Assembly: GCA_002432655.1 (NCBI GenBank) | Contig: DJFZ01000018.1 | Location: 40,391 to 104,390 of the forward strand | DNA from: Thiotrichaceae bacterium UBA5859 | GTDB taxonomy: Bacteria; Pseudomonadota; Gammaproteobacteria; UBA5859 | Direction of reading: 5' to 3' | DNA length: 64,000 nucleotides | Notes under the pieces: generated by a model | Databases searched by the model: none | Told to the model about the DNA's origin: nothing | Seen by the model: the letters and a program-made list of their open reading frames with translations, nothing else | Shown: positions 11,605 to 54,879 of the stretch, one piece after another | Numbering within the stretch: the stretch's first letter is position 1 | Layout: each line of letters begins with the position of its first letter | Translations under genes and position numbers: made by a program

Positions 11605-11623
11605 ACTGGATGGGACAGACACC

Positions 11624-13201: not shown

Positions 13202-13212
13202 ACCAAGAACCT

Positions 13213-13797: not shown

Positions 13798-13844
13798 AGC
13801 ACTATCAACCAAGTATTCATCGCATTCTTAAAAGAGAGATTATT

Positions 13845-14714
13845 ATGAGCCAAACACAAGGCGCTTATTATGTTCCTCACGGTAGTCCATGGCCAATAGT
13901 CGGCTCGGTTTCCTTGACGTTAATTGTTCTTGGTGGTGTTAATTTGATTCAATCCAAGGGGGATTCAGGTCTCATCCTTTTTGGACTGGGTGCGATAGTG
14001 CTCACTGTCATGTTATTCGGCTGGTTTGGTGCAGTTATCAACGAAAGTATTGCCGGCAGTTACAACGAGCAAGTTGATCGCTCTTTTCGTATTTCTATGG
14101 CTTGGTTTATTTTTTCCGAAGTGATGTTTTTTGCGGCATTCTTTGGAACCCTGTTTTATGCGCGCGTGTTGAGTGTGCCTTGGTTGGGCGGTGAGGGCGA
14201 TGGCGCTTGGACCAATGCTCTGCTTTGGCCGGGATTTGAGTCCATTTGGCCTAGTAATGGCCCAGAGAATGTTGGCGGCGCATTCGATACTATTGGTGCT
14301 TGGGGTATTCCTGCGATTAACACAGCCATTCTGTTGACAAGTGGTGTGACCATTACCTGGGCCCACCACGCCTTAAAAGCAGATAAGAGATTACAATTGA
14401 TTGTAGGTCTAGCCGCTACGGTGGCACTTGGCTTCTACTTTCTATACCTGCAGGTGGCCGAGTATATTCATGCTTATCAAGATCTCAATTTAACGTTGAA
14501 TTCTGGTATTTTCGGTTCCACCTTTTTTATGTTAACCGGGTTTCATGGTTTCCATGTCACTCTTGGGGCATTGATGTTGACCATTATTCTATTGCGTTGC
14601 ATTCGTGGACATTTTTCCTCCAATGACCATTTTGCCTTCGAAGCTGTGGCTTGGTATTGGCACTTTGTGGATGTGGTGTGGTTAGGGTTATTTGTTGTGG
14701 TGTATTGGATTTAA
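13845..14714 (+). CDS. coxC: cytochrome c oxidase subunit III
   Basis: It is a 7-TM protein with a C-terminus typical of Cox3 (HFVDVVWL). Confidence 0.9.
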   Translation: MSQTQGAYYVPHGSPWPIVGSVSLTLIVLGGVNLIQSKGDSGLILFGLGAIVLTVMLFGWFGAVINESIAGSYNEQVDRSFRISMAWFIFSEVMFFAAFFGTLFYARVLSVPWLGGEGDGAWTNALLWPGFESIWPSNGPENVGGAFDTIGAWGIPAINTAILLTSGVTITWAHHALKADKRLQLIVGLAATVALGFYFLYLQVAEYIHAYQDLNLTLNSGIFGSTFFMLTGFHGFHVTLGALMLTIILLRCIRGHFSSNDHFAFEAVAWYWHFVDVVWLGLFVVVYWI

Positions 14715-14746
14715 AGTAAGAATTTTTCTAAATCAGTTGTTTTGAT

Positions 14747-14779
14747 AAAAAGCGCTGCTTAGAAGGTAGCGCTTTTTTT
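14747..14779. terminator. bidirectional rho-independent terminator (AAAA-AGCGCTGC-loop-GTAGCGCT-TTTTTTT)
   Basis: A perfect 6-8 bp stem is flanked by an A-run and a T-run. It lies between convergent coxC and the antisense mini-ORF. Confidence 0.7.
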
Positions 14780-15011
14780 ATGGTGCGGCAGCATTTGTAT
14801 TAGACTGCTTTTGATAGTTGTGGGGTTGCAGTTTGCCAGTGGAGAATCCGTAAAACAGCAATGCGAATAACAATATCGACAAAACCACGCGTGTCGTAAG
14901 GCCATTGACGGTTCGTTTTGATTTTGGGCCATCTTTGAGCATCGCAAACAAGCTAAATGCGAGGCTGCCTAGAATTAAAATGAATAGGATTGCGACCAAT
15001 GTTGGAAACAA
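14778..15011 (-). CDS. small twin-transmembrane-helix protein (DUF2909-like mini-protein common in cox clusters), here antisense to the cluster
   Basis: It is 77 aa with two hydrophobic helices separated by a KR-rich loop. Its position between coxC and surf1 matches the usual mini-protein. Its stop codon lies inside the terminator T-run. Confidence 0.4.
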   Translation of the reverse strand: MFPTLVAILFILILGSLAFSLFAMLKDGPKSKRTVNGLTTRVVLSILLFALLFYGFSTGKLQPHNYQKQSNTNAAAP

Positions 15012-15088
15012 ATTCTGCTCCTAAATGAATTCGAGTTAAAATTAGTATACCGAAAGCCTGTAGTGGTTAAACAAAAGATTTTGTATCT

Positions 15089-15817
15089 ATGGACAATTTC
15101 AATTCCCGTTGGCGACTGTCCTGGATAGGTTTTTTTTTGTTGACCTTAATTGTCAGCATCATATTTATTCGCTTAGGCATGTGGCAGCAACATCGAGCGG
15201 AATATAAACAGAATCTTGTTCAACAGTATGAAGAGAGTCTACGGCAAGCGCCCTTGGAGCAATTCCCCCGCACAGCGGAGTGGGAACATTTAAGATACCG
15301 ATCTGCTTATATTTTTGGCGAATTTATGTCTGACTTAGTGATTTATTTGGATAATGAGGTGCTGGATGGTGAGGTGGGATACCTCATACACCTAGTGTTT
15401 CGTAGTGCAAATCGATATTATTTGGTGGATGTAGGTTGGCTGCCAGTGGGACAAGATCGCAGTCAGCTGCCCCATTTTGAAATACCAAGGGGAGAGGTAA
15501 AATTACTAGTTCGTGCGGATTTTCCCTTGGGCAAACTACCTTTTCTGCCTCAGAATGATTATTCTCAGGATCCTCCTATGGTATTTCCCTATTTAAGTCT
15601 GCAAGAGCTGAATCAACATCTCTCTTACCAGCTAGAGCCGATCCTGTTTCGTGTGAGCTCTGGAGACTTGTTTGGCACCAGAGTAAGTTTAGCTCAACCG
15701 AATTTTAAAGTGGATATGCATCGAAGCTATGCACTGCAATGGTTCGGGTTGGCAATCACCCTATGGGCGATTTTTCTAATATTAAGCATAAAACGAATCC
15801 AGAACCTTAATCAATGA
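15089..15817 (+). CDS. surf1: SURF1 family cytochrome oxidase biogenesis protein
   Basis: The N-terminal TM helix is followed by GMWQQHRAEYK, and a C-terminal TM helix is present. These are SURF1 hallmarks. Confidence 0.8.
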   Translation: MDNFNSRWRLSWIGFFLLTLIVSIIFIRLGMWQQHRAEYKQNLVQQYEESLRQAPLEQFPRTAEWEHLRYRSAYIFGEFMSDLVIYLDNEVLDGEVGYLIHLVFRSANRYYLVDVGWLPVGQDRSQLPHFEIPRGEVKLLVRADFPLGKLPFLPQNDYSQDPPMVFPYLSLQELNQHLSYQLEPILFRVSSGDLFGTRVSLAQPNFKVDMHRSYALQWFGLAITLWAIFLILSIKRIQNLNQ

Positions 15818-15824
15818 ATTCGAT

Positions 15825-16445
15825 GTGATGACAAAACTTTCTGAAGAGTTAGATCCTAAACAGATTAGACGTAGCCGTATTACGCTATTGTTGGTCGTAG
15901 GCGTCTTTGTGATACCGTTCTTGTTGGCATGGATTGTCACTTCTGATCTAGAACGTTTCTATCCTGGTGAAGCGGTGAATGGGGAGCTGATCCAACCGGC
16001 AATTGAATTAGAACAGTTTAGCCTGCCTTACGGCGCGGGATTGTTTACTCTAGAAGATCTAAAAGGGCACTGGACGATGGTTTATTTCGCCGCAGAAAAC
16101 TGTGCCGCTGAATGTCAACAGAATATTCATATGATGCGCCAAGTGCACACTGCCTTGGGTGCGGTACGTACGCGGGTAAAGAAAATGGTAGTGATGGATG
16201 CGACGTCGGATGCAGCGTTGTTAGAGGAGTTCCAACGGCAATATCAGAATCTATTGTTAGTGGAGGGAACGGATAGCTTTGTGAGTCAGTTTCAATTTTC
16301 TGCACAAACAGATCATTCTATATACTCGTACTATTTCGTCATCGATCCTTTGGCACATGTGATGATGCGGTATGAGGTGTCAAAAAACCAAAAAGGTTTT
16401 TTAAAAGATCTAAAAAAATTATTAAAACTTTCGAGAATCGGTTGA
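15825..16445 (+). CDS. Sco1/SenC-like thioredoxin-fold membrane protein (putative copper chaperone for CuA assembly)
   Basis: One N-terminal TM helix. CAAEC (CxxxC) is preceded by VYFAAEN. A downstream His lies in the sequence HSIYSYYFVIDP. The spacing resembles Sco proteins. It sits within the cox cluster. Confidence 0.45.
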   Translation: MMTKLSEELDPKQIRRSRITLLLVVGVFVIPFLLAWIVTSDLERFYPGEAVNGELIQPAIELEQFSLPYGAGLFTLEDLKGHWTMVYFAAENCAAECQQNIHMMRQVHTALGAVRTRVKKMVVMDATSDAALLEEFQRQYQNLLLVEGTDSFVSQFQFSAQTDHSIYSYYFVIDPLAHVMMRYEVSKNQKGFLKDLKKLLKLSRIG

Positions 16446-17467
16446 TGACATTAGGACAGACTCAGATTTATCGTCTATCTATATTCGCTACACTGCTGGC
16501 ATTTGTGGTGGTGGTACTCGGTGCTTACGTGCGTTTATCTGACGCAGGTCTAGGTTGTCCCGACTGGCCGGGCTGTTATGGATTATTGGGCGCACCTGTC
16601 AGTGAGATAGAAATGCAGCAGGCTGCGCAATCCTATCCAGGCAGTGAAGTCGATAGTGCTAAGGCGTGGAAAGAGATGGTACATCGCTATTTTGCAGGAA
16701 CCTTAGGCATAGCAATTTTGGCAATTATGATCATCAGCCTGATGCAAAAAGATAAACATGATCAGCCCATCAAACTCCCAATTGTGTTGTTGGTTTTGGT
16801 GATATTTCAGGCGTTATTGGGAATGTGGACGGTTACATTGTTACTTAAACCCGTGATAGTGATGGGGCATCTGCTAGGGGGATTCGCAACCCTTTCATTG
16901 CTCTTATTAATGGCGTTGAGAATGCGCCAACGAGTCAACCCGGTGACTAGAGTCCCCGTTCAAACCAACCTGAAACTCTTTAGCTGGATCGCTTTGATTA
17001 TATTGATAATACAAATTGCTTTAGGTGGATGGACCAGCGCCAACTATGCAGCATTGGCCTGTCCGGACTTTCCCACTTGTCAAGGACAGTGGTGGCCATC
17101 AATGAATTATCAAGAGGGCTTTACTTTGTGGCGAGGTCTCGGCATGAACTATGAAGGAGGACTTTTATCGAATGAAGCCCAAATGGCGGTGCATTTTACT
17201 CATCGGTTAGGTGCTTTTGTGACCTTGTTAGTGCTGGGTTTTGTGGCACACGTGGCGATGTTGAGAACGACAGGATCTATTAGGAAAGTAGGGATCCTAT
17301 TATTCGCTCTGTTGGCTGTACAAATCTTACTTGGTATTAGCAACGTTGTTTTTTCACTGCCCTTACTGGTAGCGGCTGCCCATAATGGAGTCGGTGCATT
17401 GTTACTTTTGGCGATGGTGACCATGGTTTATGCGGCGCATTCCTGGACTGTTAGAGAAGTGAATTGA
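16442..17467 (+). CDS. ctaA: heme A synthase
   Basis: CPDWPGC and CPDFPTC Cys pairs are present. It is an 8-TM protein. Confidence 0.85.
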   Translation: MMTLGQTQIYRLSIFATLLAFVVVVLGAYVRLSDAGLGCPDWPGCYGLLGAPVSEIEMQQAAQSYPGSEVDSAKAWKEMVHRYFAGTLGIAILAIMIISLMQKDKHDQPIKLPIVLLVLVIFQALLGMWTVTLLLKPVIVMGHLLGGFATLSLLLLMALRMRQRVNPVTRVPVQTNLKLFSWIALIILIIQIALGGWTSANYAALACPDFPTCQGQWWPSMNYQEGFTLWRGLGMNYEGGLLSNEAQMAVHFTHRLGAFVTLLVLGFVAHVAMLRTTGSIRKVGILLFALLAVQILLGISNVVFSLPLLVAAAHNGVGALLLLAMVTMVYAAHSWTVREVN

Positions 17468-18384
17468 TGGTTATTCAAACAGCTACATCCGACGCCCTAA
17501 CCAAACAATGGCGCGAATTTTTAGGCTTATGCAAACTCAAGGTGGTGGCGCTAATTGTGTTTACTTCGGTTGTGGGCATGTTGTTAGCGGTTCCAGGCTG
17601 GGTTCCGGTAGATCTATTTATTTTTGGAAATTTGGGTATTGGTATGGCCGCCGCAGCGGCAGCAGCGATCAATCACATAGTGGATCAACAGGTGGATGCA
17701 AAAATGGCACGTACGCAACATCGACCACTGGTGACAGGTAGTCTCACGAATCGTCAAGCGCTTGTTTTTGCAACTGGTCTAGCTGCGTTATCCATGTTCA
17801 TTCTAGTCCTGTTGGTGAATCCACTCACGGCTATATTAACTTTTGCTTCCCTAATTGGTTATGCAGTGGTCTATACCATGTATCTAAAAAGGGCCACGCC
17901 ACAGAATATTGTGATCGGAGGCGCCGCAGGTGCGGCACCGCCCGTGTTAGGCTGGACGGCGGTGACAGGCCAATTGGATCCACAAGCGCTGTTATTATTT
18001 TTGATAGTTTTTGTTTGGACACCGCCTCATTTTTGGGCGCTAGCCGTAGCACGGAGGGAAGAGTATGCTCGTGCCGATGTGCCTATGTTACCGGTTACCC
18101 ATGGCGTTGCGTTTACCCAAACACAAATCATTCTCTACACGCTATTACTCATAGCGGTGAGTGCCCTACCTTATGTAACGCGGATGAGTGGGCTATTCTA
18201 TTTTGGGGGTGCAATGGCGCTAGGCGCGGGTTTTCTAGTCTATGCACTGCAAATGAAAAGAACGAATGAAGATACAATAGCCATGAAGACATTCGGCTAT
18301 TCTATTTTCTATCTGATGGGGATCTTCGCATTTTTGCTCATAGATCATTATATCCCCATGGTGGTCCGACAATTCGCTTATTAA
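17464..18384 (+). CDS. ctaB: protoheme IX farnesyltransferase (heme O synthase)
   Basis: UbiA-superfamily motifs and collinearity with CyoE/CtaB. It is translationally coupled to ctaA. Confidence 0.9.
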   Translation: MMVIQTATSDALTKQWREFLGLCKLKVVALIVFTSVVGMLLAVPGWVPVDLFIFGNLGIGMAAAAAAAINHIVDQQVDAKMARTQHRPLVTGSLTNRQALVFATGLAALSMFILVLLVNPLTAILTFASLIGYAVVYTMYLKRATPQNIVIGGAAGAAPPVLGWTAVTGQLDPQALLLFLIVFVWTPPHFWALAVARREEYARADVPMLPVTHGVAFTQTQIILYTLLLIAVSALPYVTRMSGLFYFGGAMALGAGFLVYALQMKRTNEDTIAMKTFGYSIFYLMGIFAFLLIDHYIPMVVRQFAY

Positions 18385-22350: not shown

Positions 22351-22569
22351 TTAGGGGTCTAATCTCGGTTTATCTGTCTCCTCGCCCTCTGAAAATTGAT
22401 TTGTTTGGAGCGGATCTTCCTTTAGGGGCGTGTCTTCTTCCATCAAAATCCGATTGGCTGCACCTTTCAAATCGTCATACTGTCCTGAGCGAACAGCCCA
22501 GAGTAAAATAACCGCACAGATCGTGATAATAATAGACGATAGTGGAATCAATAAAAACAGGCTTTCCAT
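22351..22569 (-). CDS. ccoS: cbb3-type cytochrome oxidase maturation protein CcoS/FixS
   Basis: It is a single-TM protein of about 70 aa with W..RSGQYDDL motif. It lies immediately downstream of ccoI, overlapping by 1 nt. Confidence 0.7.
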   Translation of the reverse strand: MESLFLLIPLSSIIITICAVILLWAVRSGQYDDLKGAANRILMEEDTPLKEDPLQTNQFSEGEETDKPRLDP

Positions 22570-25037
22570 TAATCAGTTACTCTCTGTGATCTTAAACTTA
22601 GGCGTGCAGAATTGGCAACTACCAGCAAAGAACTTAGTGCCATGCCAATAGCCGCTTGCCATGGTTTCACTAGTCCAAAAGCGGCTATGGGTATGAGAGT
22701 GAAATTATAACAAAGTGCCCAAATCATATTTTCTCTTGCGGTGCGATTACTCTTCTTAGATAGTGATAAGATTTTTACTAACCCATCTAATTGGTTATTC
22801 AGAAGGATGAAGTCACTACTGATTTTTGCTAAAGAAGTACCTTGCTTCAGGCTGACGGAAATGTCGGCTGCTGCCAGTGCAAGAGAATCATTTGCACCAT
22901 CTCCGCACATCAACACGTACTCTCCCCGACGTTGCCTGTTTTTGATGTAAGATTGTTTCTGTTCCGGAGTACATTCAGCATGCCATTCGTCAAGCTCCAA
23001 ACATTTGGCCACTGCCATCACCGCAGATTGGTTATCACCACTTAGAAGGACGGTGTGAATGTGCTGCGCTTTCAGTGCGCTTATTGTGTCGATAGCATCG
23101 GCTCTGATGACATCCTTTAGTTGAAAGTGGCATATGATAGTGTCCTCAGTGGCCAGCCAAATCTGGGTTAAATCCCTTACAGCGTCATTGGCTAGAATCG
23201 TTGCGGCAAAAGCGGGATTTAAATTTCGGATCCACTCTGCTTTACCAAGATAGTATTTTTCCGTATTCACCACTGCCGAGATACCCGATCCTGGAAATGC
23301 TTGCCAATCGTCACAGATCCATTTGCACTGAATCTCTTTGAATGCATGGGCGATGGGATGTGCAGATTGCCTTTCCAGACAGGCGGCTATTTGTAAACAA
23401 TCATCTTTTGAAAAATCGTCATAGGTCTCACAGCAAAGTATATTATATCTTCCTTCGGTGAGTGTTCCTGTTTTATCAAATATAACCTGGGTTAACTGAT
23501 CGCACTGACGTAAAGCGGCCAAATCAACACACAGAATCTTTTCTTTTAGCAGTTTGAGTTGGCCAGCGACTTGCGCTGTTGGCCATGCCAGTGATAAGGC
23601 GCAAGGGCAGGCGACCACCAACACCGATAACATGATAGGCAACCACTCTTTTCCACTGATGATCAGATGGTATGCTGCGGTAAATAACGCCAGAAACAGC
23701 ACAAGGCCAATAAAGCCAGCGGCGATCTTATCCTGTACCCCAGTGTTTGCTTGCACAGACAATTGACTTTGATTCACCGCATTGATCAGTTTTTGCAGTT
23801 GGCTTTCTCGCGTGGTGGCAGAGACTTCGATAAATAGCTCACCATCCGTATTGAGGCTGCCTCCGATGACACAATCTCCCACTTCTGAGAGTACAGGAGT
23901 ACTTTCGCCAGTCATCAGACGGTTATCCACCCCAGAGCATCCTTGAACAATCTTGCCATCTACTGGAATCATTTCGCCCGGAAAAATTTGGATCCGATCA
24001 CCCTTCTTTAGAGTGATTGCTAGTACATCTTCCACAGAGTGATCTGATCTAAGTAGGTGGGCGATTGCCGGAATCTCAGTGCTCAGAAGTGATACTGACT
24101 GTAGCGTTTGGTAACTTAATCTAGCCTCTAAGTAACGGGCGATGAGTAAGAAAAAGACAAACATGGCTACTGCGTCGAAATAGAGTTCTACTTTCATCTG
24201 TAATAAATTGATACAACTGGCGCTGAACGCCAGAATCAGTGCCAAGCTGACACTTGAGTCCATGATTAGGTGACCGCGTTTTAATGCATGCCAACTGGCA
24301 GAAAAGAAAGGGTGTGCCGCGTAAGTTATTATGGGTAGACACAAGACAAGGCTGATGCCACCAATTAATAGTTGATAGTTAGTCTCGATCCCGGATGCCT
24401 GACCAAAATAGAGTGCCACGGCTAACATCATGATCTGTGCGCCGAATAGGCCAGCCACACCGACTCGGCTCAACAGATGTCTGGAGGATTCCAGTCTATC
24501 GATTTGGCTCTGTGTTGTGGTTGGCTTGGGTAAAAATCCCAAGCTAGATATAGCTTCAAGGAGTTTACCGATATCTGTTAGGAGGGGATCCCAAACTAGA
24601 TGGGCTTGATGTGAGACAAAATTGATTTGAAACTCTTTCACTCCTGGATATTTTTTGAAGTAGGATTCAAGTAACCAAATGCAGGCACTGCAATTGATAT
24701 TCTCGATAAAGAGCTCAGCATGAAGGTTGCCATCTTGATCTTTAGTGCTGAGTTGGTTTAACAGTTCATCATCATTGAATAACATGAAATTGCGCTGAGT
24801 GGGCTCTTCACTCAAAGAGACGGAATGGCTGGTACGAGTTTGGTAAAAATTTTCAAATCCCAGAGTATAGATGGTCTCACATACGGCGGCACAACCAACG
24901 CAACAAAAATGACGCACGTGCCCATGGATCTGGCGTTCTACCTTTACGGCACCATTGAGCCATTCTCCACAGTGAAAGCAGGGTTTTTGGGCGGCCTTAC
25001 GATCCTCGTGAGTTTTCAACGTGGGTGAGGTGCTCAT
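22569..25037 (-). CDS. ccoI: copper-translocating P1B-type ATPase CcoI/FixI
   Basis: HFCCVGC metal-binding site, CPC transmembrane motif, DKTGTLT phosphorylation site and GDGANDS are all present. The ORF list extends the ORF to 25157. I prefer the ATG at 25037 (MSTSPT..., preceded by GGGAGAG) because the extension overlaps a candidate FNR box. Confidence 0.8.
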   Translation of the reverse strand: MSTSPTLKTHEDRKAAQKPCFHCGEWLNGAVKVERQIHGHVRHFCCVGCAAVCETIYTLGFENFYQTRTSHSVSLSEEPTQRNFMLFNDDELLNQLSTKDQDGNLHAELFIENINCSACIWLLESYFKKYPGVKEFQINFVSHQAHLVWDPLLTDIGKLLEAISSLGFLPKPTTTQSQIDRLESSRHLLSRVGVAGLFGAQIMMLAVALYFGQASGIETNYQLLIGGISLVLCLPIITYAAHPFFSASWHALKRGHLIMDSSVSLALILAFSASCINLLQMKVELYFDAVAMFVFFLLIARYLEARLSYQTLQSVSLLSTEIPAIAHLLRSDHSVEDVLAITLKKGDRIQIFPGEMIPVDGKIVQGCSGVDNRLMTGESTPVLSEVGDCVIGGSLNTDGELFIEVSATTRESQLQKLINAVNQSQLSVQANTGVQDKIAAGFIGLVLFLALFTAAYHLIISGKEWLPIMLSVLVVACPCALSLAWPTAQVAGQLKLLKEKILCVDLAALRQCDQLTQVIFDKTGTLTEGRYNILCCETYDDFSKDDCLQIAACLERQSAHPIAHAFKEIQCKWICDDWQAFPGSGISAVVNTEKYYLGKAEWIRNLNPAFAATILANDAVRDLTQIWLATEDTIICHFQLKDVIRADAIDTISALKAQHIHTVLLSGDNQSAVMAVAKCLELDEWHAECTPEQKQSYIKNRQRRGEYVLMCGDGANDSLALAAADISVSLKQGTSLAKISSDFILLNNQLDGLVKILSLSKKSNRTARENMIWALCYNFTLIPIAAFGLVKPWQAAIGMALSSLLVVANSARLSLRSQRVTD

Positions 25038-25140
25038 CTCTCCCGATCGCTGAGGACATGAAGTATCTGTGGATAAAGGTTTCAACATAGTGAGGGCAAC
25101 AGGAAAGACAAGAATTTTATACCACCCATTCGCAATCTTA

Positions 25141-25154
25141 TTGACATAGATCAT
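25141..25154. promoter_or_regulatory. candidate FNR/Anr box TTGACATAGATCAT (core TTGA-N6-TCA) about 125 nt upstream of ccoN
   Basis: It matches 12/14 of TTGAT-N4-ATCAA. It lies in the divergent ccoI/ccoN intergenic region. An fnr gene is present in this window. Confidence 0.35.
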
Positions 25155-25276
25155 CAAAGAAGATTTGTCACTGTAGGATAATTTTTATTGAGGAGAGTGT
25201 TTCCTTAATCGTCTAGTTTTACCTACGGCTAAATCTTAGGAAGATTTAACTACAGATCAATCTTCGGGAAGTCAAA

Positions 25277-26692
25277 TTGAATCAGAGCGCGACGTATAAT
25301 GATAAAGTGGTCGCCCAATTTGCCTATGCCTCTGTACTATGGGGGATTGTGGGCATGGGCGTGGGCGTGTTACTTGCGGCACAATTAATTTGGCCTGAGC
25401 TCAATGGCGGTGTGCCCTGGCTTAGTTATGGCAGACTCAGGCCATTACATACGAATGCGGTGATTTTTGCGTTTGGTGGTAGTGTGCTCTTTTGCACTTC
25501 TTACTATATCGTTCAGCGAACCTGTCAGGTGAGGTTATTTAGTGACACACTGGCCGGCTTTACCTTTTGGGGATGGCAGTTGGTGATTGTGTCCGCGGCT
25601 ATTAGTTTGCCCCTGGGTATAACGAGTTCTAAGGAATACGCTGAACTGGAATGGCCAATTGATTTACTCATCACTGTAGTGTGGGTGGCCTATGCTATAG
25701 TTTTCCTGGGTACCATTTTCCAGCGTCGCGTGAAGCATATCTATGTAGCTAACTGGTTTTTTACTGCTTTCATATTGGCAGTGGCGGTGTTGCATTTAGT
25801 CAATAGCGCTGCGATGCCAGTGTCCGCTTTTAAATCTTACTCCATGTATTCTGGGGCCATAGATGCGATGATTCAATGGTGGTATGCACATAATGCCGTG
25901 GGCTTTTTCTTAACGGCAGGTTTCCTCGGTATTATGTATTATTTTGTTCCCAAGCAAGCCGGTAGACCCATTTACTCTTACCGTTTATCAGTCATCCATT
26001 TTTGGGCTCTAGTTGCCATTTACATCTGGGCTGGACCTCACCATTTGCACTACACCGCCTTGCCGGACTGGGCTCAATCCTTAGGTATGGTGTTTTCTCT
26101 GATGCTACTTGCCCCCTCATGGGGCGGGATGATCAACGGCATTATGACTCTATCGGGTGCGTGGCATAAGCTACGGGAAGATCCCATATTGAGATTTATG
26201 ATCGTCTCACTCTCATTTTACGGTATGTCTACTTTTGAAGGACCAATGATGTCTATCAAAACGGTTAATGCCCTATCCCATTATACAGAATGGACAATCG
26301 GCCACGTGCATTCTGGTGCACTTGGTTGGGTAGCTCTGATTAGTATTGGTGCCCTCTATTCACTGATCCCTCGTCTGTATGGCAAAAAATCCATGTACAG
26401 CACTAAACTAATAGAATGGCATTTTTGGATCTCTACCGTTGGTCTATTCCTATACATTCTCTCGATGTGGATCGGCGGTGTGATGCAAGGTCTGATGTGG
26501 CGATCAGTGAATGCAGATGGCACTTTGACCTATGCATTTATCGAGACGGTAGAGCGCATGCAGCCGTTCTATTTCATTCGTTTTCTTGGTGGTTTGTTAT
26601 TCTTATTTGGCATGTTGCTACTTGCTTACAATGTCTGGAAAACAGTGGCGAATGAACAACGTGCCACAGTCATGATCCCCAGTGCAGCTTAA
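25277..26692 (+). CDS. ccoN: cbb3-type cytochrome c oxidase subunit I
   Basis: Collinear with CcoN ([11 protein letters not shown]...WGIVGM). The start is a TTG preceded by GGGAAG. Confidence 0.95.
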
Positions 26693-26710
26693 TTCGTTGA
26701 AAGTAAACTC

Positions 26711-27316
26711 ATGACGCATGATAAAGTAGAAACCAATATTGGCTTGATGACGATCTTGGTCATTGCGGTTCTAAGCTTGGGCGGCTTGGCCGAAATTATT
26801 CCTCTGTTTTTTCTCAAATCAACCACTGAACCTGTTGCAGGTTTAAAACCCTATACTGCATTACAGCTGGAAGGTCGGGATATCTATATTCGTGAGGGTT
26901 GTGTCGGTTGCCATTCGCAAATGATTCGACCTTTACGTGCAGAAACTGCTCGTTATGGACACTATTCTGTTGCAGGTGAATTTGTCTATGAACATCCTTT
27001 TTTATGGGGTTCCAAACGCACCGGACCCGATCTGGCGAGAGTGGGTGGACGTTATAGCGATGAGTGGCATCGATTGCATTTAATTAACCCTCGGGATGTG
27101 GTGCCAGAATCCAATATGCCAGCCTATCCATGGCTGGCAGAGAAGGAACTGTCTGGTCAGAATACGGCGACAAAGATGCGCCGGCTCCAAATTCTTGGTG
27201 TGCCTTATAGTGCGGATGATGTGGCATCTGCTAGTAAGAACGTTCAAGGTAAAACTGAACTGGACGCCTTAGTAGCTTATTTACAGGTATTAGGTACGCA
27301 AGTGAAGGGGCAATAG
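26711..27316 (+). CDS. ccoO: cbb3-type cytochrome c oxidase subunit II (monoheme)
   Basis: One CVGCH heme motif and an N-terminal TM anchor are present. Confidence 0.9.
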
Positions 27317-27499
27317 ATGGGCGTAAGCTTAGTTCATTCAGTTTTTACGGTGATTTTAGTCATTCTATTTGTGGGCCTGGTGGTTTGGGCTTGGCGAAAA
27401 GAGCGTCGAACTGATTTCCAAGAGGCTGCAGGAATTGTGTTAACCGAGGACATCTGGCTTCATCAACAAGATGAAGAGCGAGACACACATAATGAGTGA
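27317..27499 (+). CDS. ccoQ: cbb3-type cytochrome c oxidase subunit CcoQ
   Basis: It is a 60-aa single-TM protein between ccoO and ccoP. Confidence 0.6.
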   Translation: MGVSLVHSVFTVILVILFVGLVVWAWRKERRTDFQEAAGIVLTEDIWLHQQDEERDTHNE

Positions 27500-28382
27500 C
27501 TTTTTTCATTGGTATATCATCGCGATTACAGTAGCTTCCATACTTGGCATGGTATGGCTAATTTGGTGGACCCGTAAGTTGCCTGCCAGTGAAGAGAGTA
27601 CGGAACATACTACCGGCCACGTATGGGATGAAGATATTGAAGAGGGTAATTATCCGCTTCCTCGCTGGTGGTTGGGTCTGTTTTATTTGACTATCATATT
27701 TTCTGTTATCTATTTAATTTTGTATCCGGGTTTAGGAAAGTTTCCCGGCTTGCTGAATTGGACCTCCAGCGAACGTTACGCTTCAGAGGTGGCTACGGCG
27801 GACAAAACGTTAACGCAACTATACGAGCAATACGATAAATTATCTTTGGCAGAATTAGGTGAACATGAAGCTGCGATGGGTACCGCAAAACGACTGTTTT
27901 TAAACTACTGTGGCCAATGTCACGGATCGGATGGCGCAGGACGGCCCGGTTTTCCCAATTTAAGAGATGACGATTGGTTGTATGGCGGTGATGAAATTGC
28001 GGTGATGAAAAGTATTGCCAAGGGCCGTCAGGGTATCATGCCCGCTATGGGCGCGGCCTTGGACTCTGCTGGGAGAGAGCAGTTAGTGGATTACATTTTA
28101 AAACTATCTGGCCAAGATCATGATACTGAATTGGCGGCTAAGGGTAGTCCATTATTTACTACTTACTGCGCAGGCTGTCATGGTATACAAGGAACAGGTA
28201 ATAGCATGATAGGGGCGCCGAATCTAACAGATTCGATTTGGCTGTATGGTGGCAATGTTGAGAGTGTTACAGACTCCATTGTCAATGGACGTAGCGGCAA
28301 TATGCCGGCTCACAATGATTTACTGAAAGAAGCACAAATTCGGCTACTCACTGCCTATTTGCTTCAAGGGCGTAGCCAATGA
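27492..28382 (+). CDS. ccoP: cbb3-type cytochrome c oxidase subunit III (diheme)
   Basis: Two heme-binding motifs are present (CGQCHG, CAGCHG). The ATG at 27492 (MSDFFHWYI, matching the MSxFW N-terminus of CcoP) overlaps the ccoQ stop. The ORF list starts at 27471. Confidence 0.9.
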   Translation: MSDFFHWYIIAITVASILGMVWLIWWTRKLPASEESTEHTTGHVWDEDIEEGNYPLPRWWLGLFYLTIIFSVIYLILYPGLGKFPGLLNWTSSERYASEVATADKTLTQLYEQYDKLSLAELGEHEAAMGTAKRLFLNYCGQCHGSDGAGRPGFPNLRDDDWLYGGDEIAVMKSIAKGRQGIMPAMGAALDSAGREQLVDYILKLSGQDHDTELAAKGSPLFTTYCAGCHGIQGTGNSMIGAPNLTDSIWLYGGNVESVTDSIVNGRSGNMPAHNDLLKEAQIRLLTAYLLQGRSQ

Positions 28383-28681
28383 ATCGTTGGTCTGCTTTAT
28401 CTTTCAAGGGATCCAAGGCAGAGCAGATTAAATGGCCAGTGGTATGGATGTCGATATTGTGGCCAAGTTTTTTAATGGCAGGGGTGCAGACGGTAGGTTT
28501 CTATCTCTATTTTGTGCCAGAGGAGTTATTCCCATGCGGTACTGAACATAACTTGTCTCAGTGTCGATTAAGTATCTACAGCGTCACTTTTTTCGTCGTT
28601 TGGTGTATGGATGCCATATTGGCAGCGGTGTGTAGTTATTTTCTATTGACAGGACTAGTTTCTACTGCAAATGATGGTTAA
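28379..28681 (+). CDS. hypothetical small membrane protein, translationally coupled (ATGA) to ccoP
   Basis: It is 100 aa with 2-3 hydrophobic helices. It sits between ccoP and ccoG, which usually has no gene. Confidence 0.35.
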   Translation: MNRWSALSFKGSKAEQIKWPVVWMSILWPSFLMAGVQTVGFYLYFVPEELFPCGTEHNLSQCRLSIYSVTFFVVWCMDAILAAVCSYFLLTGLVSTANDG

Positions 28682-28711
28682 CAGATTTCTAAATCTTATG
28701 AAGTTGTTGTT

Positions 28712-30124
28712 ATGTCTAAATCTACACAAACACAGGATGCCACAGGTGATCCCCTTTCCTTAGTCCAAAAGTCTCTATACGAGAAGCGGCAAAAGATCTA
28801 TCCGCGAGAAACCAATGGAATATTTTCTTCCGTTCGCCGAGCGATAGCATGTCTAATCATTGCAGGTTTTATTGGTCTTCCCTGGTTGCAGTGGCAAGGG
28901 CAGCAAGCATTCCTTATTGATTTACCAGGCCGAAAGTTTACTATTCTTTGGTGGACATTTTGGCCGCAAGATTTTATTTATGCGGCAGTATTAGCCATAC
29001 TTGCGGTTTTAGCGCTCTTTTTTTTCACAGCTTTAGCAGGGCGTCTTTGGTGCGGTTATAGCTGTCCTCAAACTGTATGGACCGAAGCTTTCATCTGGGT
29101 GGAGCGCTTGATAGAAGGCAGTCGGACGCAGCAAATAAAATTGGATAAGTCTGCCAATAACCTTAATAAAGTTGCAAAAAAAATATCGAAGCATCTGGTT
29201 TGGCTAGCCATTGCTGTATTAACCGGGTTTGCCTTCGCAGGTTATTTTACGCCGGTACGTGATCTTACTTTTCAACTCGTAGGGGGTGATCTCAGTTTTT
29301 GGCAAGGGTTTTGGCTGCTTTTTTACAGTGCGGCCACTTATGGAAATGCTGGTTGGATGCGCGAGCAAGTCTGTTTATATATGTGTCCCTATGCGCGCTT
29401 GCAAAGTGCTATGTTGGATCGTAATTCTTTGGTTATCTCCTATGATCCTAAACGAGGTGAACCACGAGGTGGCCGATCCCGTCAACAAGATCCAAAATCA
29501 CTCGCACTCGGCGAGTGTATAGATTGTACTCTCTGTGCCCAAGTGTGTCCCACAGGAATCGATATTAGAGACGGATTGCAATATCAATGTATCGGTTGTG
29601 CCGCCTGTATTGATGTTTGTAATCAAGTGATGGATAAGATGAATTACCCACGGGGCTTGATACGCTATACCACTGAGAATGCCTTAATGGGATTACCTTC
29701 ACAAATCTTGCGGCCTCGAATGATGATTTATGGTTTTCTATTAAGCGCGCTGTCGGTGGGATTACTGGCGGCGGTTGTATTGCGTGTGCCCTTGGAGCTC
29801 GATATTATCCGTGATAGAAACCTGCTCTATGTAGAGACAGTGCAGGGAGAGATAGAGAATGTCTATACCTTAAAAATTATTAACATGGATAAAGAGCAAC
29901 ATGAGTATCTACTGACAATAGAAGGATCTGATGGGATACGAGTCGCGCAAACTGACAACATCATAGTAAAAGCTGGGGAAATATTAGAATACCCGGTGCG
30001 GGTATCGATTCCTAAAAAGGCGATATCTAGTCGGAACCAGGCGCTCCATTTCCGCCTGCAGGCACTGGATCGCCCTCGATTAAGAGTGACTGAGGTAGGC
30101 CGATTTTTAGCGCCTAATGGATGA
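28712..30124 (+). CDS. ccoG: cbb3 oxidase accessory 4Fe-4S ferredoxin CcoG/FixG
   Basis: Two ferredoxin Cys clusters are present (CIDCTLCAQVCP, CIGCAACIDVC). N-terminal TM helices are present. Confidence 0.9.
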   Translation: MSKSTQTQDATGDPLSLVQKSLYEKRQKIYPRETNGIFSSVRRAIACLIIAGFIGLPWLQWQGQQAFLIDLPGRKFTILWWTFWPQDFIYAAVLAILAVLALFFFTALAGRLWCGYSCPQTVWTEAFIWVERLIEGSRTQQIKLDKSANNLNKVAKKISKHLVWLAIAVLTGFAFAGYFTPVRDLTFQLVGGDLSFWQGFWLLFYSAATYGNAGWMREQVCLYMCPYARLQSAMLDRNSLVISYDPKRGEPRGGRSRQQDPKSLALGECIDCTLCAQVCPTGIDIRDGLQYQCIGCAACIDVCNQVMDKMNYPRGLIRYTTENALMGLPSQILRPRMMIYGFLLSALSVGLLAAVVLRVPLELDIIRDRNLLYVETVQGEIENVYTLKIINMDKEQHEYLLTIEGSDGIRVAQTDNIIVKAGEILEYPVRVSIPKKAISSRNQALHFRLQALDRPRLRVTEVGRFLAPNG

Positions 30125-30645
30125 TGGGAGATCACGAACAAAAGCCTATAGAGCACCCGTTACGCAATCCTTTTGTATGGATGTTACTGTGTATATTAGG
30201 TTGGTCCGTGGTGAGCGGTTTGAGCATGATCTTAGTGGCGATAAAAACTAACGACGGTGTGGTCATAGATGACTACTACCGTCAGGGGCGTCTTATCAAT
30301 CGCCGCACCGAATTGGATCAACAGGCTGCCGATTATGGGTTGCGCGCAGAGCTGAGTATTCACGATAGCGCGACCGGCTTACAGTTGCATCAGGGTCAGC
30401 TCGTCAGCTATCCGCAACAGCTCCAGCTAACTCTATGGCATAGCACTATGTCTGGTCATGATCAAACCCAGCAACTGCTGCATCTCGGAGGCGGACACTA
30501 TTCACAACAGTTACCGCAGTCCCTGCGTCCTGGTAGATGGCATCTAGAATTAAAAACAGCTGAGTGGCGACTGGTGGGTGATATTCATGTACCGGATCAA
30601 ACTCAAGTGGAATTAAGTCCAAGTGCCATGGTTTTTTCCCAGTGA
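30121..30645 (+). CDS. ccoH: FixH/CcoH family protein
   Basis: It is a single-TM protein following ccoG with a 4-nt overlap. The N-terminus is FixH-like (NPFVWMLL...). Confidence 0.7.
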   Translation: MMGDHEQKPIEHPLRNPFVWMLLCILGWSVVSGLSMILVAIKTNDGVVIDDYYRQGRLINRRTELDQQAADYGLRAELSIHDSATGLQLHQGQLVSYPQQLQLTLWHSTMSGHDQTQQLLHLGGGHYSQQLPQSLRPGRWHLELKTAEWRLVGDIHVPDQTQVELSPSAMVFSQ

Positions 30646-31331
30646 CCTTGGCATTAATCATGTTAAGTGCCTTCTGGGTGGGTTTAGCTGGCGCGGGACA
30701 TTGTCTCAGTATGTGTTCTGGTTTTTCCGGAATGGCTGCAACAGATCTCTCCACGGGTATACCCAGATGGCAAAATTTTGCCCTCGTGCAATTGGGGCGG
30801 ATCTCTAGTTATCTGCTGGTGGGAGCGGTATTGGCGGCCGGGCTGCAATGGTTGGAGCTGTCCACTTCAGACTCTTTATTAGTAGTGGGGCACTATTTCG
30901 CCCTCTTCATGTTGCTTGGGTTGGCCCTCTATCTGTTCGGATTCCCCCAGTTACTGCTTCCCTTTGAAAAGCTGGGAGGTTGGATTTGGCGGCCTTGCCA
31001 ACGGCTGATAAACGGACTCTTTCCTATCCAGCGGCCTAGTCAGGCCTTTGCTTTTGGGTTGCTCTGGGGCTGGTTACCCTGCGGTATGGTATACGCGGTG
31101 GCGGCCCTTGCTCTGAGCACTGGCGTACCTTATCAAGGCGCTTTAGTGATGGTGGCGTTTGGCATTGGAACCTTACCGGCAATCTATTCGAGTCAGGCAA
31201 TACTGGGCTATCTCACCCAGCAGGTTCGGCAATCGATGGTACGCAAAATTGGTGGCTGCGCTGTTTTGCTTGTTGCAATCCTGAATTGGTATATACATTC
31301 TCTTTCGCAAAATACGGCTCATTTTCACTAA
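30642..31331 (+). CDS. polytopic membrane protein (TauE/SafE- or HupE-like) coupled to ccoH
   Basis: About 6 TM helices. A GHCLSMC motif lies in the first helix. It overlaps ccoH by 4 nt. Confidence 0.45.
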   Translation: MTLALIMLSAFWVGLAGAGHCLSMCSGFSGMAATDLSTGIPRWQNFALVQLGRISSYLLVGAVLAAGLQWLELSTSDSLLVVGHYFALFMLLGLALYLFGFPQLLLPFEKLGGWIWRPCQRLINGLFPIQRPSQAFAFGLLWGWLPCGMVYAVAALALSTGVPYQGALVMVAFGIGTLPAIYSSQAILGYLTQQVRQSMVRKIGGCAVLLVAILNWYIHSLSQNTAHFH

Positions 31332-31541
31332 GTTAAGTTAGATAAATATTTAGTCAATTTATTCATCTAAGAATAAGTCTAAATCTAATAATAGACTGAT
31401 TCTAAGTATCTAAAAAAACTCTAATAATCCAATTTGTTTTAGATCAAGTTTATGCTTTTCACTGGTATCTCAGTGTTCTTTTATCTGTTAGTTTTAAGGC
31501 GTCAGTTTACAAAATAGATAAATGTTAAAGGAGATTAAAAA

Positions 31542-32381
31542 ATGGCAAGCGTAGCCCATAGCGATGACCGCCTAGTCCCGCAACCAGCTAACCCTAATAT
31601 GATCAGCCGGTTATTATTTCCCGTGGATGAGCGGGGCGCGCCAAAATTACCCTGGTTAGCCGCAGTGATTGGTATCGTGGCGATAGGAGCGTTTGCTACC
31701 GCCTATCGTCTCTACACTCAAAAGTATGCTTTTATCTATGGTTTGGACTATTTTGATGCCGAGTTTGGGACTTACTGGATGAGCCTGTTTTGGACTCAAA
31801 TTACACTCATTACGATGGGTTTAATAATAGGGGTACCTTGGGTTTGGTTCAGCCGCCCTAAAGATCCTCATGCGATGACCCCGCAGCGTGAGTTAGGCGT
31901 TTATTATCTCATTTTCACCTTTATGGCGGTGGGCTCTCTAGCCTTAATGGTGATGCTGGGTGTATTTGTAGAAGCTGACGCTGCTTGGCACCAAGTGACT
32001 ATCCGTGACACAGATTTTACACCGACACACATCGGACTTTTTTATCTAGTGATACCTGCAGGGGCGGTGGGCGCGATCATCGGTGCAATCTGGTTGCACA
32101 CCCGTATGCCGGATTTTGTCGGTAGAGCGTCCATTCCATTTTTATTGGTGGTCGCCGCGCCTGTGATGATTATGCCCAATTTGGGATTGAACGAATGGGG
32201 TCATACCTTCTTTTATGCCGAGGAGCTTTTCGCGGCACCCATCCATTGGGGATTTGTGGTTCTCGGATGGGGATTTTTTGCGCTAGGTGGATTCTTCTTA
32301 CAATGCATCAGCAGAGTACGGGTGTTAACCACTGCTGTTTATGAGAATCCAAAAATGAATGTAGAGAACCAACCGTCATAG
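31542..32381 (+). CDS. pmoC: copper membrane monooxygenase subunit C homolog (PmoC/AmoC family), apparently orphan
   Basis: It aligns over its full length with Methylococcus PmoC (TYWM, [50 protein letters not shown]). The Asp/His/His putative metal ligands are conserved. No A or B subunit gene is adjacent. Confidence 0.8.
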   Translation: [279 protein letters not shown]

Positions 32382-32427
32382 CTAAATAGCTATCCCTTGC
32401 TGAGCTTCTCAACTTGTAGAGAAGTAA

Positions 32428-32487
32428 GGGGTTAGGAATCGAACCAGTGATGTATTCGGTATTTGATTTCTAACCCCGTTTTTTTTT
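32428..32487 (+). terminator. rho-independent terminator (GGGGTTAG...CTAACCCC plus T9) after pmoC
   Basis: An 8-bp GC-rich stem with a structured loop is followed by a 9-T run. It abuts the 3' end of convergent gspF. Confidence 0.75.
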
Positions 32488-32489
32488 GT

Positions 32490-33710
32490 TTATCCCACTA
32501 GATTATTCATCTCAAAAATTGGCAACAAGATTGCCACCACTATCAACAGCACCATACCCCCCATTAAAAGAATCATGATTGGCTCTAAGGTAGTGGAAAC
32601 TGCGTTTGATAGAGTTTTTACCTCTCTATCTTGGCTGGTGGCAGCTCGCTCCAACATTTGATCCAGTTGGCCGCTGTTCTCTCCACTGGCGACCAATTTT
32701 AAAATCATTTTGGGGAAATATCCGTCTGACTCTAAAGCGCGATGTAAGTTGCTGCCTTCACTAACGCGCCTAGTGGCTTTGATGACCGATTCACGCATTG
32801 GTAAATTGGTCATCACTTGTGCGGCCACTGGCATGGCTTCCAACGCGGGTACACCGCTGGAGGTTAAGATACTCATGGTTCGCGAGAAATCTGCCGTATT
32901 GCTGCCTTTAATTAACTTTCCTATGAGTGGTAGTTTTAAAACCAGTTGGTCTCGGCGGCGTAATGCGCTTATAGAGCGTTTCATTAATTCCCGGTAAAGG
33001 AGATATGTGACACCAGTGACGATAAGTACGTAGATCCCCTGAGCACGGATGAAGTCGCTTAATGCAATAATTCCCTGTGTCAATGCCGGTAGGGTTTGTC
33101 CTGTGGTGACGAATACCTCCACTAAATCGGGTACGACAAAGGCTAACAAGCCCGACACAATACCAATGGCCACAAAACTAATAATAGCGGGATAGATAAG
33201 GGCACCGATTAATTCACGGCGGTTTTCTTGGCGAGTTTCGGAATAATCTGCTAATCGTTCCAATACCGTATCCAGATTGCCCGAAGTCTCGCCTGCTTTT
33301 ACGGTGGCACAATAAATTTCTGAAAACGCTTTGGGAAAGTCACTGAGCCCGGAAGCCAGGGGGTGGCCTTCCAACACCCGGGTGCGAACGGACAGTAGCA
33401 ATCGTTGCAATTTAGGCTTCTCAGTTTGTTCGGCTACAGTGTGGATCGCTTCTTCTACCGGTAAACCGGCTTTTACTAAGGTGGCCAATTGTCGAGTGAT
33501 CAATGCTTGATCGGCAATGGAGATCCTAAGGTTGGCCCCCGGGGTGTGTCGACGGCCGCGCTCTTTTCGTTGATGGATTTCCACCACGGTGAGTGGGGTC
33601 AAAGCTTGTTGGCGTAAACGTGAGCGGATCTGTTTCGCAGTATCCCCTTCTAATATTCCGCTTTGCTGCTTGCCAGCGTTGTCCAACGCTTTGTATTCGA
33701 ATGCAGCCAC
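32490..33710 (-). CDS. gspF: type II secretion system inner-membrane platform protein GspF
   Basis: It is a 406-aa protein with two GspF/PilC repeats and 3 TM helices. It follows gspE. Confidence 0.9.
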   Translation of the reverse strand: MAAFEYKALDNAGKQQSGILEGDTAKQIRSRLRQQALTPLTVVEIHQRKERGRRHTPGANLRISIADQALITRQLATLVKAGLPVEEAIHTVAEQTEKPKLQRLLLSVRTRVLEGHPLASGLSDFPKAFSEIYCATVKAGETSGNLDTVLERLADYSETRQENRRELIGALIYPAIISFVAIGIVSGLLAFVVPDLVEVFVTTGQTLPALTQGIIALSDFIRAQGIYVLIVTGVTYLLYRELMKRSISALRRRDQLVLKLPLIGKLIKGSNTADFSRTMSILTSSGVPALEAMPVAAQVMTNLPMRESVIKATRRVSEGSNLHRALESDGYFPKMILKLVASGENSGQLDQMLERAATSQDREVKTLSNAVSTTLEPIMILLMGGMVLLIVVAILLPIFEMNNLVG

Positions 33711-54135: not shown

Positions 54136-54879
54136 ATGATGTCTGATATGTCGAGCCCTTTAGACATGGAACGTGTTCGACAAGCGTGTCGTTCCTGCTC
54201 AGTTTCTCAACTCTGTTTACCGGCTGGATTAGAAGCATCAGAGTTAGATCGTTTGGAATCTGCGTTAGAGAAAAAAATGACACTTCACCGGGGGGAGTCT
54301 CTTTATACCGTAGGTGATCCGTTGGAATCATTATTTGCCGTGCGCTCTGGTTGCATGAAAACTTCTGTTTTGGGTTCGGATGGTGTGGAGCAGATAATCG
54401 GATTTGCTTTACCAGGCGAACTCCTAGGTTTAGACGCTTTAAGTGTAGAGCGACATCAGTGCACAGCAGTGGCGCTGGATACCACCGCAATTTGTGTTTT
54501 ACCCTTCGCCCGAATCGAAGATTTGGCTGCCGAATTGCCCTCACTGAATCGTCAACTGTTGAGGATCATGGGGTCAGAAATTAGTCGAGAACAGGATTTG
54601 TTATCGCTACTGGCGAACAAACGTGCATCTGAGCGATTAGCGTCCTTTCTAGATAACCTATCTAAAAGATTCAGTGACCGTGGGTATTCCGGGCGGGATT
54701 TTCGACTCTATATGTCGAGACAAGAGATGGCTAACTATTTAGGCATGACAATAGAAACTGTGAGTCGCACCTTATCAGCTTGGCAACGGGAGGGGCTTAT
54801 TCATATCGAATCTAAAGCGCTCAGTATTCTCGATCCAGAAGGTCTCAGGGCCATTGCCGGTAATTGCGTAGCGGGCTAA
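54136..54879 (+). CDS. fnr: FNR/ANR oxygen-sensing Crp-family transcriptional regulator
   Basis: The N-terminal Cys cluster (CRSCSVSQLC plus an internal Cys) is present. cNMP-like domain is present. C-terminal helix-turn-helix ETVSR is collinear with E. coli FNR. Confidence 0.9.
   Translation: MMSDMSSPLDMERVRQACRSCSVSQLCLPAGLEASELDRLESALEKKMTLHRGESLYTVGDPLESLFAVRSGCMKTSVLGSDGVEQIIGFALPGELLGLDALSVERHQCTAVALDTTAICVLPFARIEDLAAELPSLNRQLLRIMGSEISREQDLLSLLANKRASERLASFLDNLSKRFSDRGYSGRDFRLYMSRQEMANYLGMTIETVSRTLSAWQREGLIHIESKALSILDPEGLRAIAGNCVAG

Follow-up and report, generated by a model that had tools for sequence, protein, structure and literature searches.

A lone C-subunit gene of a copper membrane monooxygenase next to cbb3 oxidase genes in Thiotrichaceae bacterium UBA5859

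The lone xmoC gene and its product

We analysed 64 000 nucleotides (64 kb) of contig DJFZ01000018.1 from Thiotrichaceae bacterium UBA5859 (assembly GCA_002432655.1; positions 40 391 to 104 390, forward strand), a stretch referred to below as the window. It holds a phmC-like gene for the C (gamma) subunit of a copper membrane monooxygenase (CuMMO) that has no A or B subunit gene beside it and that is called here lone xmoC; the gene and the features discussed with it are listed in Table 1. The product is an AmoC/PmoC-family C subunit, as an initial annotation made from the sequence had proposed: Pfam family PF04896 (AmoC) matched model positions 19–242 out of 245 with 201.7 bits (cut-off 26.7; E = 1.6e-59). 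The open reading frame (ORF) starts with ATG and is intact. The closest solved structures by sequence are PmoC chains (3chx_C, 7s4m_G and 4phz_K; phmmer, E ~3e-50). When an AlphaFold2 model of the product (pLDDT 80.5, pTM 0.79) was compared with the PDB by Foldseek, ranks 1–21 were taken without exception by PmoC/AmoC, the best three matches being 7s4m_C, 9pxf_G and 9leg_C (TM 0.69–0.79). As modelled, the product has the PmoC/AmoC helical membrane fold.

Table 1. Positions in the window of lone xmoC, its flanking signals and the genes discussed with it
Feature	Position	Strand	Basis or description
Lone xmoC (phmC-like), C (gamma) subunit of copper membrane monooxygenase	31542..32381	+	279 aa; ORF, profile and fold
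Spacer upstream of lone xmoC, presumed promoter region	31332..31541	+	210 bp, 76% A+T
FNR/ANR-like box TTGTTTTAGATCAA	31434..31447	+	One mismatch to TTGAT-N4-ATCAA; centre ~101 nt upstream of the xmoC ATG
Shine-Dalgarno sequence AGGAG	31529..31533	+	8 nt before the xmoC ATG; same in the sister genome
Intrinsic terminator between convergent xmoC and gspF	32428..32487	+	Hairpin with 16-bp stem (32428-32477), then nine T
cbb3 oxidase and maturation genes: ccoNOQP, 100-aa ORF, ccoG, ccoH (FixH), DsbD_2 protein	25277..31331	+	Pfam matches
FNR ortholog (Crp/FNR family)	54136..54879	+	Pfam match; match to 5cvr_A, E 1.5e-62
FNR-like box TTGATCTGTGTCAA	54036-54049		~90 nt upstream of the FNR gene start

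Both the Asp/His/His positions and the conserved motif block that the initial annotation had reported are present in the product (the MILPN read in that block is a trivial difference). By alignment to Methylocystis PmoC (4phz; D129, H133 and H146) the ligands of the CuC site are D146, H150 and H163. Those of the CuD site, located through the M. capsulatus numbering, which we take to be N227, H231 and H245, fall at N217, H221 and H235, so that all six metal ligands are kept. The CuC ligands are invariant in 93 out of 93 sequences of the clade and outgroup, and the CuD positions are kept in 91–92 of these. AlphaFold confidence is very low at residues 213–234 (nt ~32178–32243), which is exactly the loop with the CuD ligands N217 and H221; the same region is disordered in detergent-solubilised structures of particulate methane monooxygenase (pMMO). 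By analogy with the characterized enzymes, the product is a candidate member of an active alpha3-beta3-gamma3 monooxygenase complex.

Signals around the gene

The very AT-rich upstream region of its own and the strong terminator that had been ascribed to the gene were both recovered (Table 1). The terminator RNA has a predicted folding energy of −36.7 kcal/mol (z = −4.9 versus shuffled sequence), and the structure is kept (z = −4.6) in the sister genome used throughout for comparison, that of Thiotrichaceae bacterium WDNA12_bin.8 (GCA_041940025.1). Alignment of the spacer between the two genomes gave conserved blocks amid variable sequence. Signs of a possible separate transcription unit are the conserved predicted terminator, the spacer with its conserved blocks and the FNR-like box within it, and the AT-rich spacer is presumed to contain a promoter of lone xmoC's own. 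A further hairpin in the spacer (31460–31475) was considered as an attenuator or terminator and dropped because it is not conserved in the sister genome. A riboswitch or other known RNA in the spacer or 3′ region was likewise rejected, Rfam having returned sub-threshold chance matches only.

Partner genes elsewhere in the genome

The initial annotation had described the gene as an orphan, which is right for the locus and wrong for the genome. At the locus, tblastn with the organism's own A and B proteins found neither xmoA nor xmoB anywhere in the 64 kb (best E = 0.025 and 1.2), which confirms the reported absence of adjacent pmoA/pmoB genes and rules out A and B genes lying just beyond the flanking genes. 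Elsewhere, the search for CAB or ABC operons that the initial annotation had suggested turned up a C-C-A-B operon in the same population and in the sister metagenome-assembled genome (MAG). Metagenomes of oil-polluted beach sand (PRJNA260285) and other runs contain the exact window protein, and in 4/4 samples where it was shown, a contig (L017) was found that carries two tandem AmoC genes (C1 and C2) followed by AMO and then Monooxygenase_B. One binned MAG (protein accessions HBC5xxxx) includes pieces of the lone-C locus, among them its gspE and cbb3 neighbours, and also encodes A and B proteins that match those of L017 at 100% identity. Synonymous divergence (dS) between L017 and the sister operon was 1.1–1.6 and that between the window and the syntenic sister region 1.0–1.6; such equal divergence is as expected if L017 and the window belong to one genome.

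Besides a syntenic lone copy (91% identical) and a C-C-A-B operon, the sister MAG holds two further C genes that stand alone, on contigs other than these. Orthologs of these two were also found in the window population: P0049, a lone gene beside a BNR-repeat protein gene, in the same samples as the window protein, and P0035 in the same BioProject. The organism therefore holds at least 4–5 C genes per single A/B pair found, and lone xmoC, which is 66% identical to C1 and 72% identical to C2 (tblastn), is not an orphan at genome level.

Several features of these other loci were recorded. The tandem C genes of the operon (L017 10001–15429; L029 10001–15456) are 70% identical to each other, and the spacers are unusually long (~770 bp between C1 and C2, ~820 bp between C2 and A). 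Genes flanking the operon encode a GMC oxidoreductase, two aldehyde dehydrogenases, a thiolase-like protein and an enoyl-CoA hydratase, with a multicopper oxidase after the operon. Following xmoB (L017 15645–19755; also L045, L046, L059 and L103) is a gene for a conserved 177–211-aa protein with a hydrophobic C-terminus and no Pfam family, then the multicopper oxidase gene and genes for two proteins with no Pfam matches or sub-threshold ones; these conserved genes may code for copper proteins that are accessory to this type of CuMMO. In the sister MAG, the second C gene of the operon (L010 11684–12319; L029 11708–12486) seems frameshifted, being called as 211 aa with no Pfam match and hit by tblastn in two pieces. 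It is intact (271 aa) in the Logan assembly of the same sequence (L009), and the frameshift is either an assembly error or real decay. In metagenome ERZ1756121 (L023 3372–4486) an insertion sequence (IS) element with rve integrase and HTH_Tnp_1 stands directly after C1, the usual place of C2. The BNR-linked C gene follows the BNR gene in the sister and precedes it in the window population (L109–L115 versus L049), a change of order that shows local rearrangement around a lone C gene.

Selection and origin

In the comparison of window with sister, the ratio of non-synonymous to synonymous divergence (dN/dS) was 0.050 for lone xmoC and 0.052 for operonic C1, with 0.015 for A and 0.025 for B; the dS of lone xmoC versus its sister ortholog was ~1.35. 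The ORF is intact in every assembly carrying it. At positions with at least 90% conservation among the 19 operonic C subunits of the clade, lone xmoC keeps 77/77, the median for lone copies overall being 2 deviations. Judged by these alignments, lone xmoC is under strong purifying selection and is a functional gene.

A neighbour-joining tree of C subunits (unbootstrapped, with two PmoC outgroups) clusters the five paralogs of the lineage and makes the window copy sister to operonic C2; by this topology lone xmoC is the product of a lineage-specific duplication. A phylogeny had been proposed in the initial annotation, and the tree, with its two PmoC outgroups, supplies it as far as placing the gene in a hydrocarbon-type clade (see below). 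Divergence among the paralogs is mostly confined to residues 1–100 (33–52% identity), whereas the metal-site core (144–245) is at 82–91%. Fixed changes specific to the lone copy number 23 and are mostly in the N-terminal tail and at residues 45–116 and 198–209. An N-terminal divergence combined with a conserved core is more in keeping with paralogs that differ in regulation or assembly than with a change in chemistry.

Type of monooxygenase and spread of lone C genes

Which substrate class the enzyme belongs to (methane, ammonia or short-chain hydrocarbon) had been left as a question by the initial annotation. The product scored below the cut-offs of both NCBIfam equivalog models, NF041641 for bacterial AmoC (219 versus 319) and TIGR03078 for subunit C of pMMO and ammonia monooxygenase (AMO; 195.2 versus 280.6), and strictly speaking it should therefore be called neither amoC nor pmoC. 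The best 120 of 564 database relatives were 49–91% identical and from uncultured Gammaproteobacteria, the named taxa among them being Candidatus Macondimonas, Moraxellaceae, Pseudomonadales and Panacagrimonas; A-subunit relatives came from Panacagrimonas, Solimonas, Sinimarinibacterium, Nevskia, Hydrogenophaga and Porticoccaceae. This group corresponds to the ‘unknown function’ or hydrocarbon-type CuMMOs of Khadka et al. 2018 (PMC6215863), and also figures in preprints on Porticoccaceae and on tar patties (10.1101/2023.07.16.546273), in both of which the substrate of the clade is hypothetical too. As far as sequence allows, the sub-cut-off scores, the relatives, the tree position and the alcohol and aldehyde oxidation genes by the operon point to a hydrocarbon CuMMO of oil-associated Gammaproteobacteria and not to a pMMO or AMO; of the three substrates first considered, methane and ammonia are disfavoured.

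The distribution of C genes was surveyed in species-representative genomes (best 80 of 174 kept), which gave 79 loci (L028–L106) in 26 genomes. At 62 of the 79, neither A nor B accompanied the C gene in the locus; in 29 of these, at least 5 kb of sequence was available on both sides. Single genomes reach nine C genes beside two A/B operons (NORP74). At the same threshold the protein database held 564 C relatives versus 146 A relatives. Singleton C genes additional to the operonic ones are already known in hydrocarbon-type CuMMOs and the window copy adds one more. Among the arrangements seen were tandem triplets (L054, L056) and inverted pairs (L035, L038, L053), and orthologous lone loci of the Macondimonas lineage keep their synteny. 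No neighbour family was common to all lone loci in the 79-locus set, where lineage-specific synteny groups only were found.

Genes flanking lone xmoC

The neighbours are as first reported, with cbb3 maturation genes upstream and a convergent gspF downstream; gspF is followed by gspE, gspD and gspC, and ccoI is on the minus strand upstream of ccoNOQP. Gene order on the cbb3 side is identical in the sister genome. These genes are taken as the context of lone xmoC and not as part of a single unit with it. The direct adjacency of xmoC to ccoGH-DsbD_2 is seen in this genus only among the 79 loci. Two lone copies of the Macondimonas lineage lie ~4 kb from ccoN, and these cco-linked copies are on another branch of the tree than the window copy; at one of the loci (L047) ccoN is separated from xmoC by four unrelated genes, for a hydrolase, an MFS transporter, a nitroreductase and GDT1. 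A functional link between xmoC and cbb3 that extends across taxa is not supported, given the genus-limited adjacency and these unrelated intervening genes. Because the adjacency is limited to the genus and the other cco-linked copies belong to a different branch, we read it as shared regulation at most and not as a role in oxidase maturation.

Two other origins of the locus were discarded. A horizontally acquired island does not fit the GC content of xmoC (0.49 versus ~0.45–0.50 for its neighbours), the synteny kept in the sister or the absence of mobile genes nearby. As to a phage origin, only two viral contigs hold relatives, at 45–46% identity, and no phage or mobile-element sign was seen at the lone xmoC locus.

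The remainder of the window may be described briefly. Between ccoP and ccoG is a 100-aa ORF (28379–28681, +) without Pfam family, and the sister, like those metagenome copies that span the region, has a gene call of equal length there. Two terminal oxidase systems are found within 20 kb, namely an aa3-type cluster (10465–18384; coxB, coxA, ctaG, coxC, SURF1, a thioredoxin-fold protein, ctaA and ctaB) and the cbb3 cluster (22569–31331). Further content includes bioBFCD, type II secretion genes, the FNR gene, and a universal stress protein gene and an Hsp20 gene, neither of which adjoins xmoC. No hydrocarbon-pathway gene was found among the ORFs neighbouring lone xmoC. The sox genes that the initial annotation had attributed to the genome were not confirmed in the window, there being none among the ORFs scanned.

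FNR-like boxes and candidate oxygen control

The box TTGTTTTAGATCAA in the xmoC spacer falls in a 17-nt block in which window and sister do not differ, amid otherwise variable spacer sequence; the chance of finding such a box in this spacer is ~0.036. A candidate regulator is encoded in the same window: the FNR ortholog has the C18-x2-C21-x5-C27 arrangement, a fourth Cys and the E--SR recognition helix, and it may act at the box upstream of lone xmoC. The box TTGATCTGTGTCAA ahead of the FNR gene itself suggests autoregulation. Upstream of ccoN there is an FNR-like box with two mismatches in the window (25141–25154) and one in the sister.

Similar boxes were found at other C genes of the clade. 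A perfect FNR box is present in the C2–A spacer of both C-C-A-B operons (L017 12532 and L029 12597), with different central bases in the two (P ~0.004 each), and another lone copy (L030) has an upstream box with one mismatch. Within 300 nt upstream, boxes were found at 7 of 87 clade C genes versus 2.05 expected, and all seven genes are lone copies. They include the two Macondimonas-lineage copies near ccoN, whose spacers are GC-rich and for which the chance expectation is 0.001–0.003.

Possible role of the lone C subunit

Our preferred explanation, put forward with moderate confidence, is that lone xmoC supplies the organism's copper membrane hydrocarbon monooxygenase with a functional alternative C subunit from a separate transcript, probably induced by low oxygen via FNR. 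The gene would be transcribed alone from the AT-rich spacer and end at its own terminator, and its protein, by analogy, would assemble with A and B from the C-C-A-B operon elsewhere, yielding either an isoform of the enzyme or a substitute for C subunit that has been damaged, the role proposed for Nitrosomonas amoC3. The probable trigger would be low oxygen sensed by the window-encoded FNR, and lone xmoC may be co-regulated with the adjacent high-affinity cbb3 oxidase. Recent structural work on pMMO and AMO has placed candidate active-site copper centres in the C subunit, and so the choice of the C gene that is expressed may set the behaviour of the enzyme.

Several observations weigh against this explanation. 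Assembly of the lone C protein with A and B is argued from analogy. The assignment of lone xmoC and the operon to one genome relies on co-occurrence, equal divergence and binning, in genomes that are MAGs, none of them closed. The xmoC box departs from the FNR consensus at one position. Lastly, FNR-like boxes are not enriched window-wide (7 found, 4.55 expected), and a consensus scan of the spacer gave no clear sigma-70 promoter; because of these last two results FNR control of lone xmoC is put forward as a reasoned hypothesis and not as a result.

The same material can be read differently. The C subunit swapped in might alter the hydrocarbon that the complex oxidises, and oxygen or stress would then have no special part in it. 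We find such a substrate-range isoform unlikely, although the authors of the tar-patty study do suggest that extra phmC copies broaden substrate affinities (10.1101/2023.07.16.546273) and although C genes far outnumber A/B genes, both in NORP74 (9 C to 2 A/B) and in the survey and database counts given above. What speaks against it is the near identity of the six ligands and of core 144–245 among the lone copy, C1 and C2, the location of the 23 lone-specific changes given above, and the lack of any hydrocarbon-pathway gene beside the window copy. Somewhat less likely again is a replacement subunit of the amoC3 kind, induced by starvation, heat or oxidative damage in place of low oxygen, with the FNR-like box being a chance match. 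In its favour, amoC3 offers a precedent of equal divergence, at ~67% (PMC13058606), the box is imperfect and has a chance of ~0.036 in the spacer, and the window does contain the universal stress protein and Hsp20 genes, if not adjoining xmoC. A chance match sits poorly, however, with the invariance of the 17-nt block and with the recurrence of similar boxes before other lone copies, including those in GC-rich genomes.

Two further explanations were weighed. In one, the product is an A/B-independent copper-binding membrane protein that serves copper handling or cbb3 maturation and is co-transcribed with ccoG-ccoH-DsbD_2; the gene does lie directly downstream of these maturation genes on the same strand, in an arrangement kept in the sister, and the two Macondimonas-lineage copies near ccoN could be counted in its favour. 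We nevertheless consider it improbable, given that immediate adjacency is limited to this genus, that the genes between ccoN and xmoC in L047 are unrelated, that the cco-linked copies are on a different branch, that 210 bp separate xmoC from DsbD_2 and that every position conserved in operonic C subunits is kept, well beyond the ligands. In the other, to which the initial annotation had given room, the gene is a decaying relic or silent duplicate. The absence of local A/B partners would agree with decay, but the selection analysis effectively refutes it: the ORF is intact in all assemblies carrying it, dN/dS is 0.05 at a dS of ~1.35, the conserved family positions and all ligands are retained, and the ribosome-binding site and terminator are conserved.

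A wider proposal is distinctly more tentative. In this clade the metal-site subunit may be a swappable module, one A/B scaffold being served by 4–9 dispersed C genes, of which an FNR-controlled ‘hypoxia isoform’ subset would include the window copy. The grounds for it are that independent lineages have boxes before lone copies, with two such copies near cco clusters, and that perfect boxes precede xmoA. If true, this isoform would be induced along with the high-affinity cbb3 oxidase, and the oxygen-consuming monooxygenase would in this way be retuned or rebuilt under oxygen scarcity. An oxygen-regulated C isoform is the most useful lead to come from the locus, being testable, and it makes the locus a handle on the old question of what singleton xmoC genes are for. 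The organism, seen here as a hydrocarbon degrader from oiled beach sand, maintains under selection all of its at least 4–5 C genes for the single A/B pair found. A practical lesson for annotation is that a lone ‘pmoC/amoC’ match in a metagenome is evidence neither of methane or ammonia oxidation nor of orphan status.

Comparison with known systems

Singleton xmoC genes have been known since the 1990s, and xmoC is the only CuMMO gene found as a singleton besides operonic copies (Khadka et al. 2018, PMC6215863). The nearest system is that of UBA5335/Candidatus Macondimonas, for which extra phmC copies beside phmCAB have been reported (10.1101/2023.07.16.546273). Its phmC belongs to the same clade as the window copy (52–63% identity, with the invariant motifs in common), and in both systems one or a few CAB operons are accompanied by several lone C genes at scattered sites; the habitat, oil or tar on beaches, is also shared. 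The present case differs in being a low-GC (~45%) MAG labelled Thiotrichaceae with duplications of its own, a C-C-A-B operon with tandem C genes and a copy directly after ccoGH-DsbD_2.

In Nitrosomonas europaea, amoC3 is 67.5% identical to amoC1/2, is induced by stress and during recovery from starvation, and is regarded as an isoform under separate regulation that serves in stress or as a replacement (PMC13058606). The likeness lies in a lone C gene that exists besides operonic copies and is ~67% identical to them (66–72% here). The enzyme there is an ammonia monooxygenase and the conditions are starvation and heat, whereas here FNR and low oxygen are proposed and there are several lone copies.

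Methanotrophs, too, have lone C genes in the form of singleton pmoC copies (for example pmoC3 in Methylococcus capsulatus Bath and those in Methylocystis sp. SC2), but methanotroph PmoC is distant from the window copy (phmmer E ~3e-50; 30–40% identity in Foldseek alignments), and nothing at the window copy, which is below the TIGR03078 cut-off, points to methane as substrate. The relationship is also distant to the multiple amoC genes of soil ammonia-oxidising archaea and the phage-borne pmoC and amoC genes, in which, as in the window lineage, C alone has been amplified or mobilised. Such C-only amplification or mobilisation suggests that C is an exchangeable or limiting subunit.

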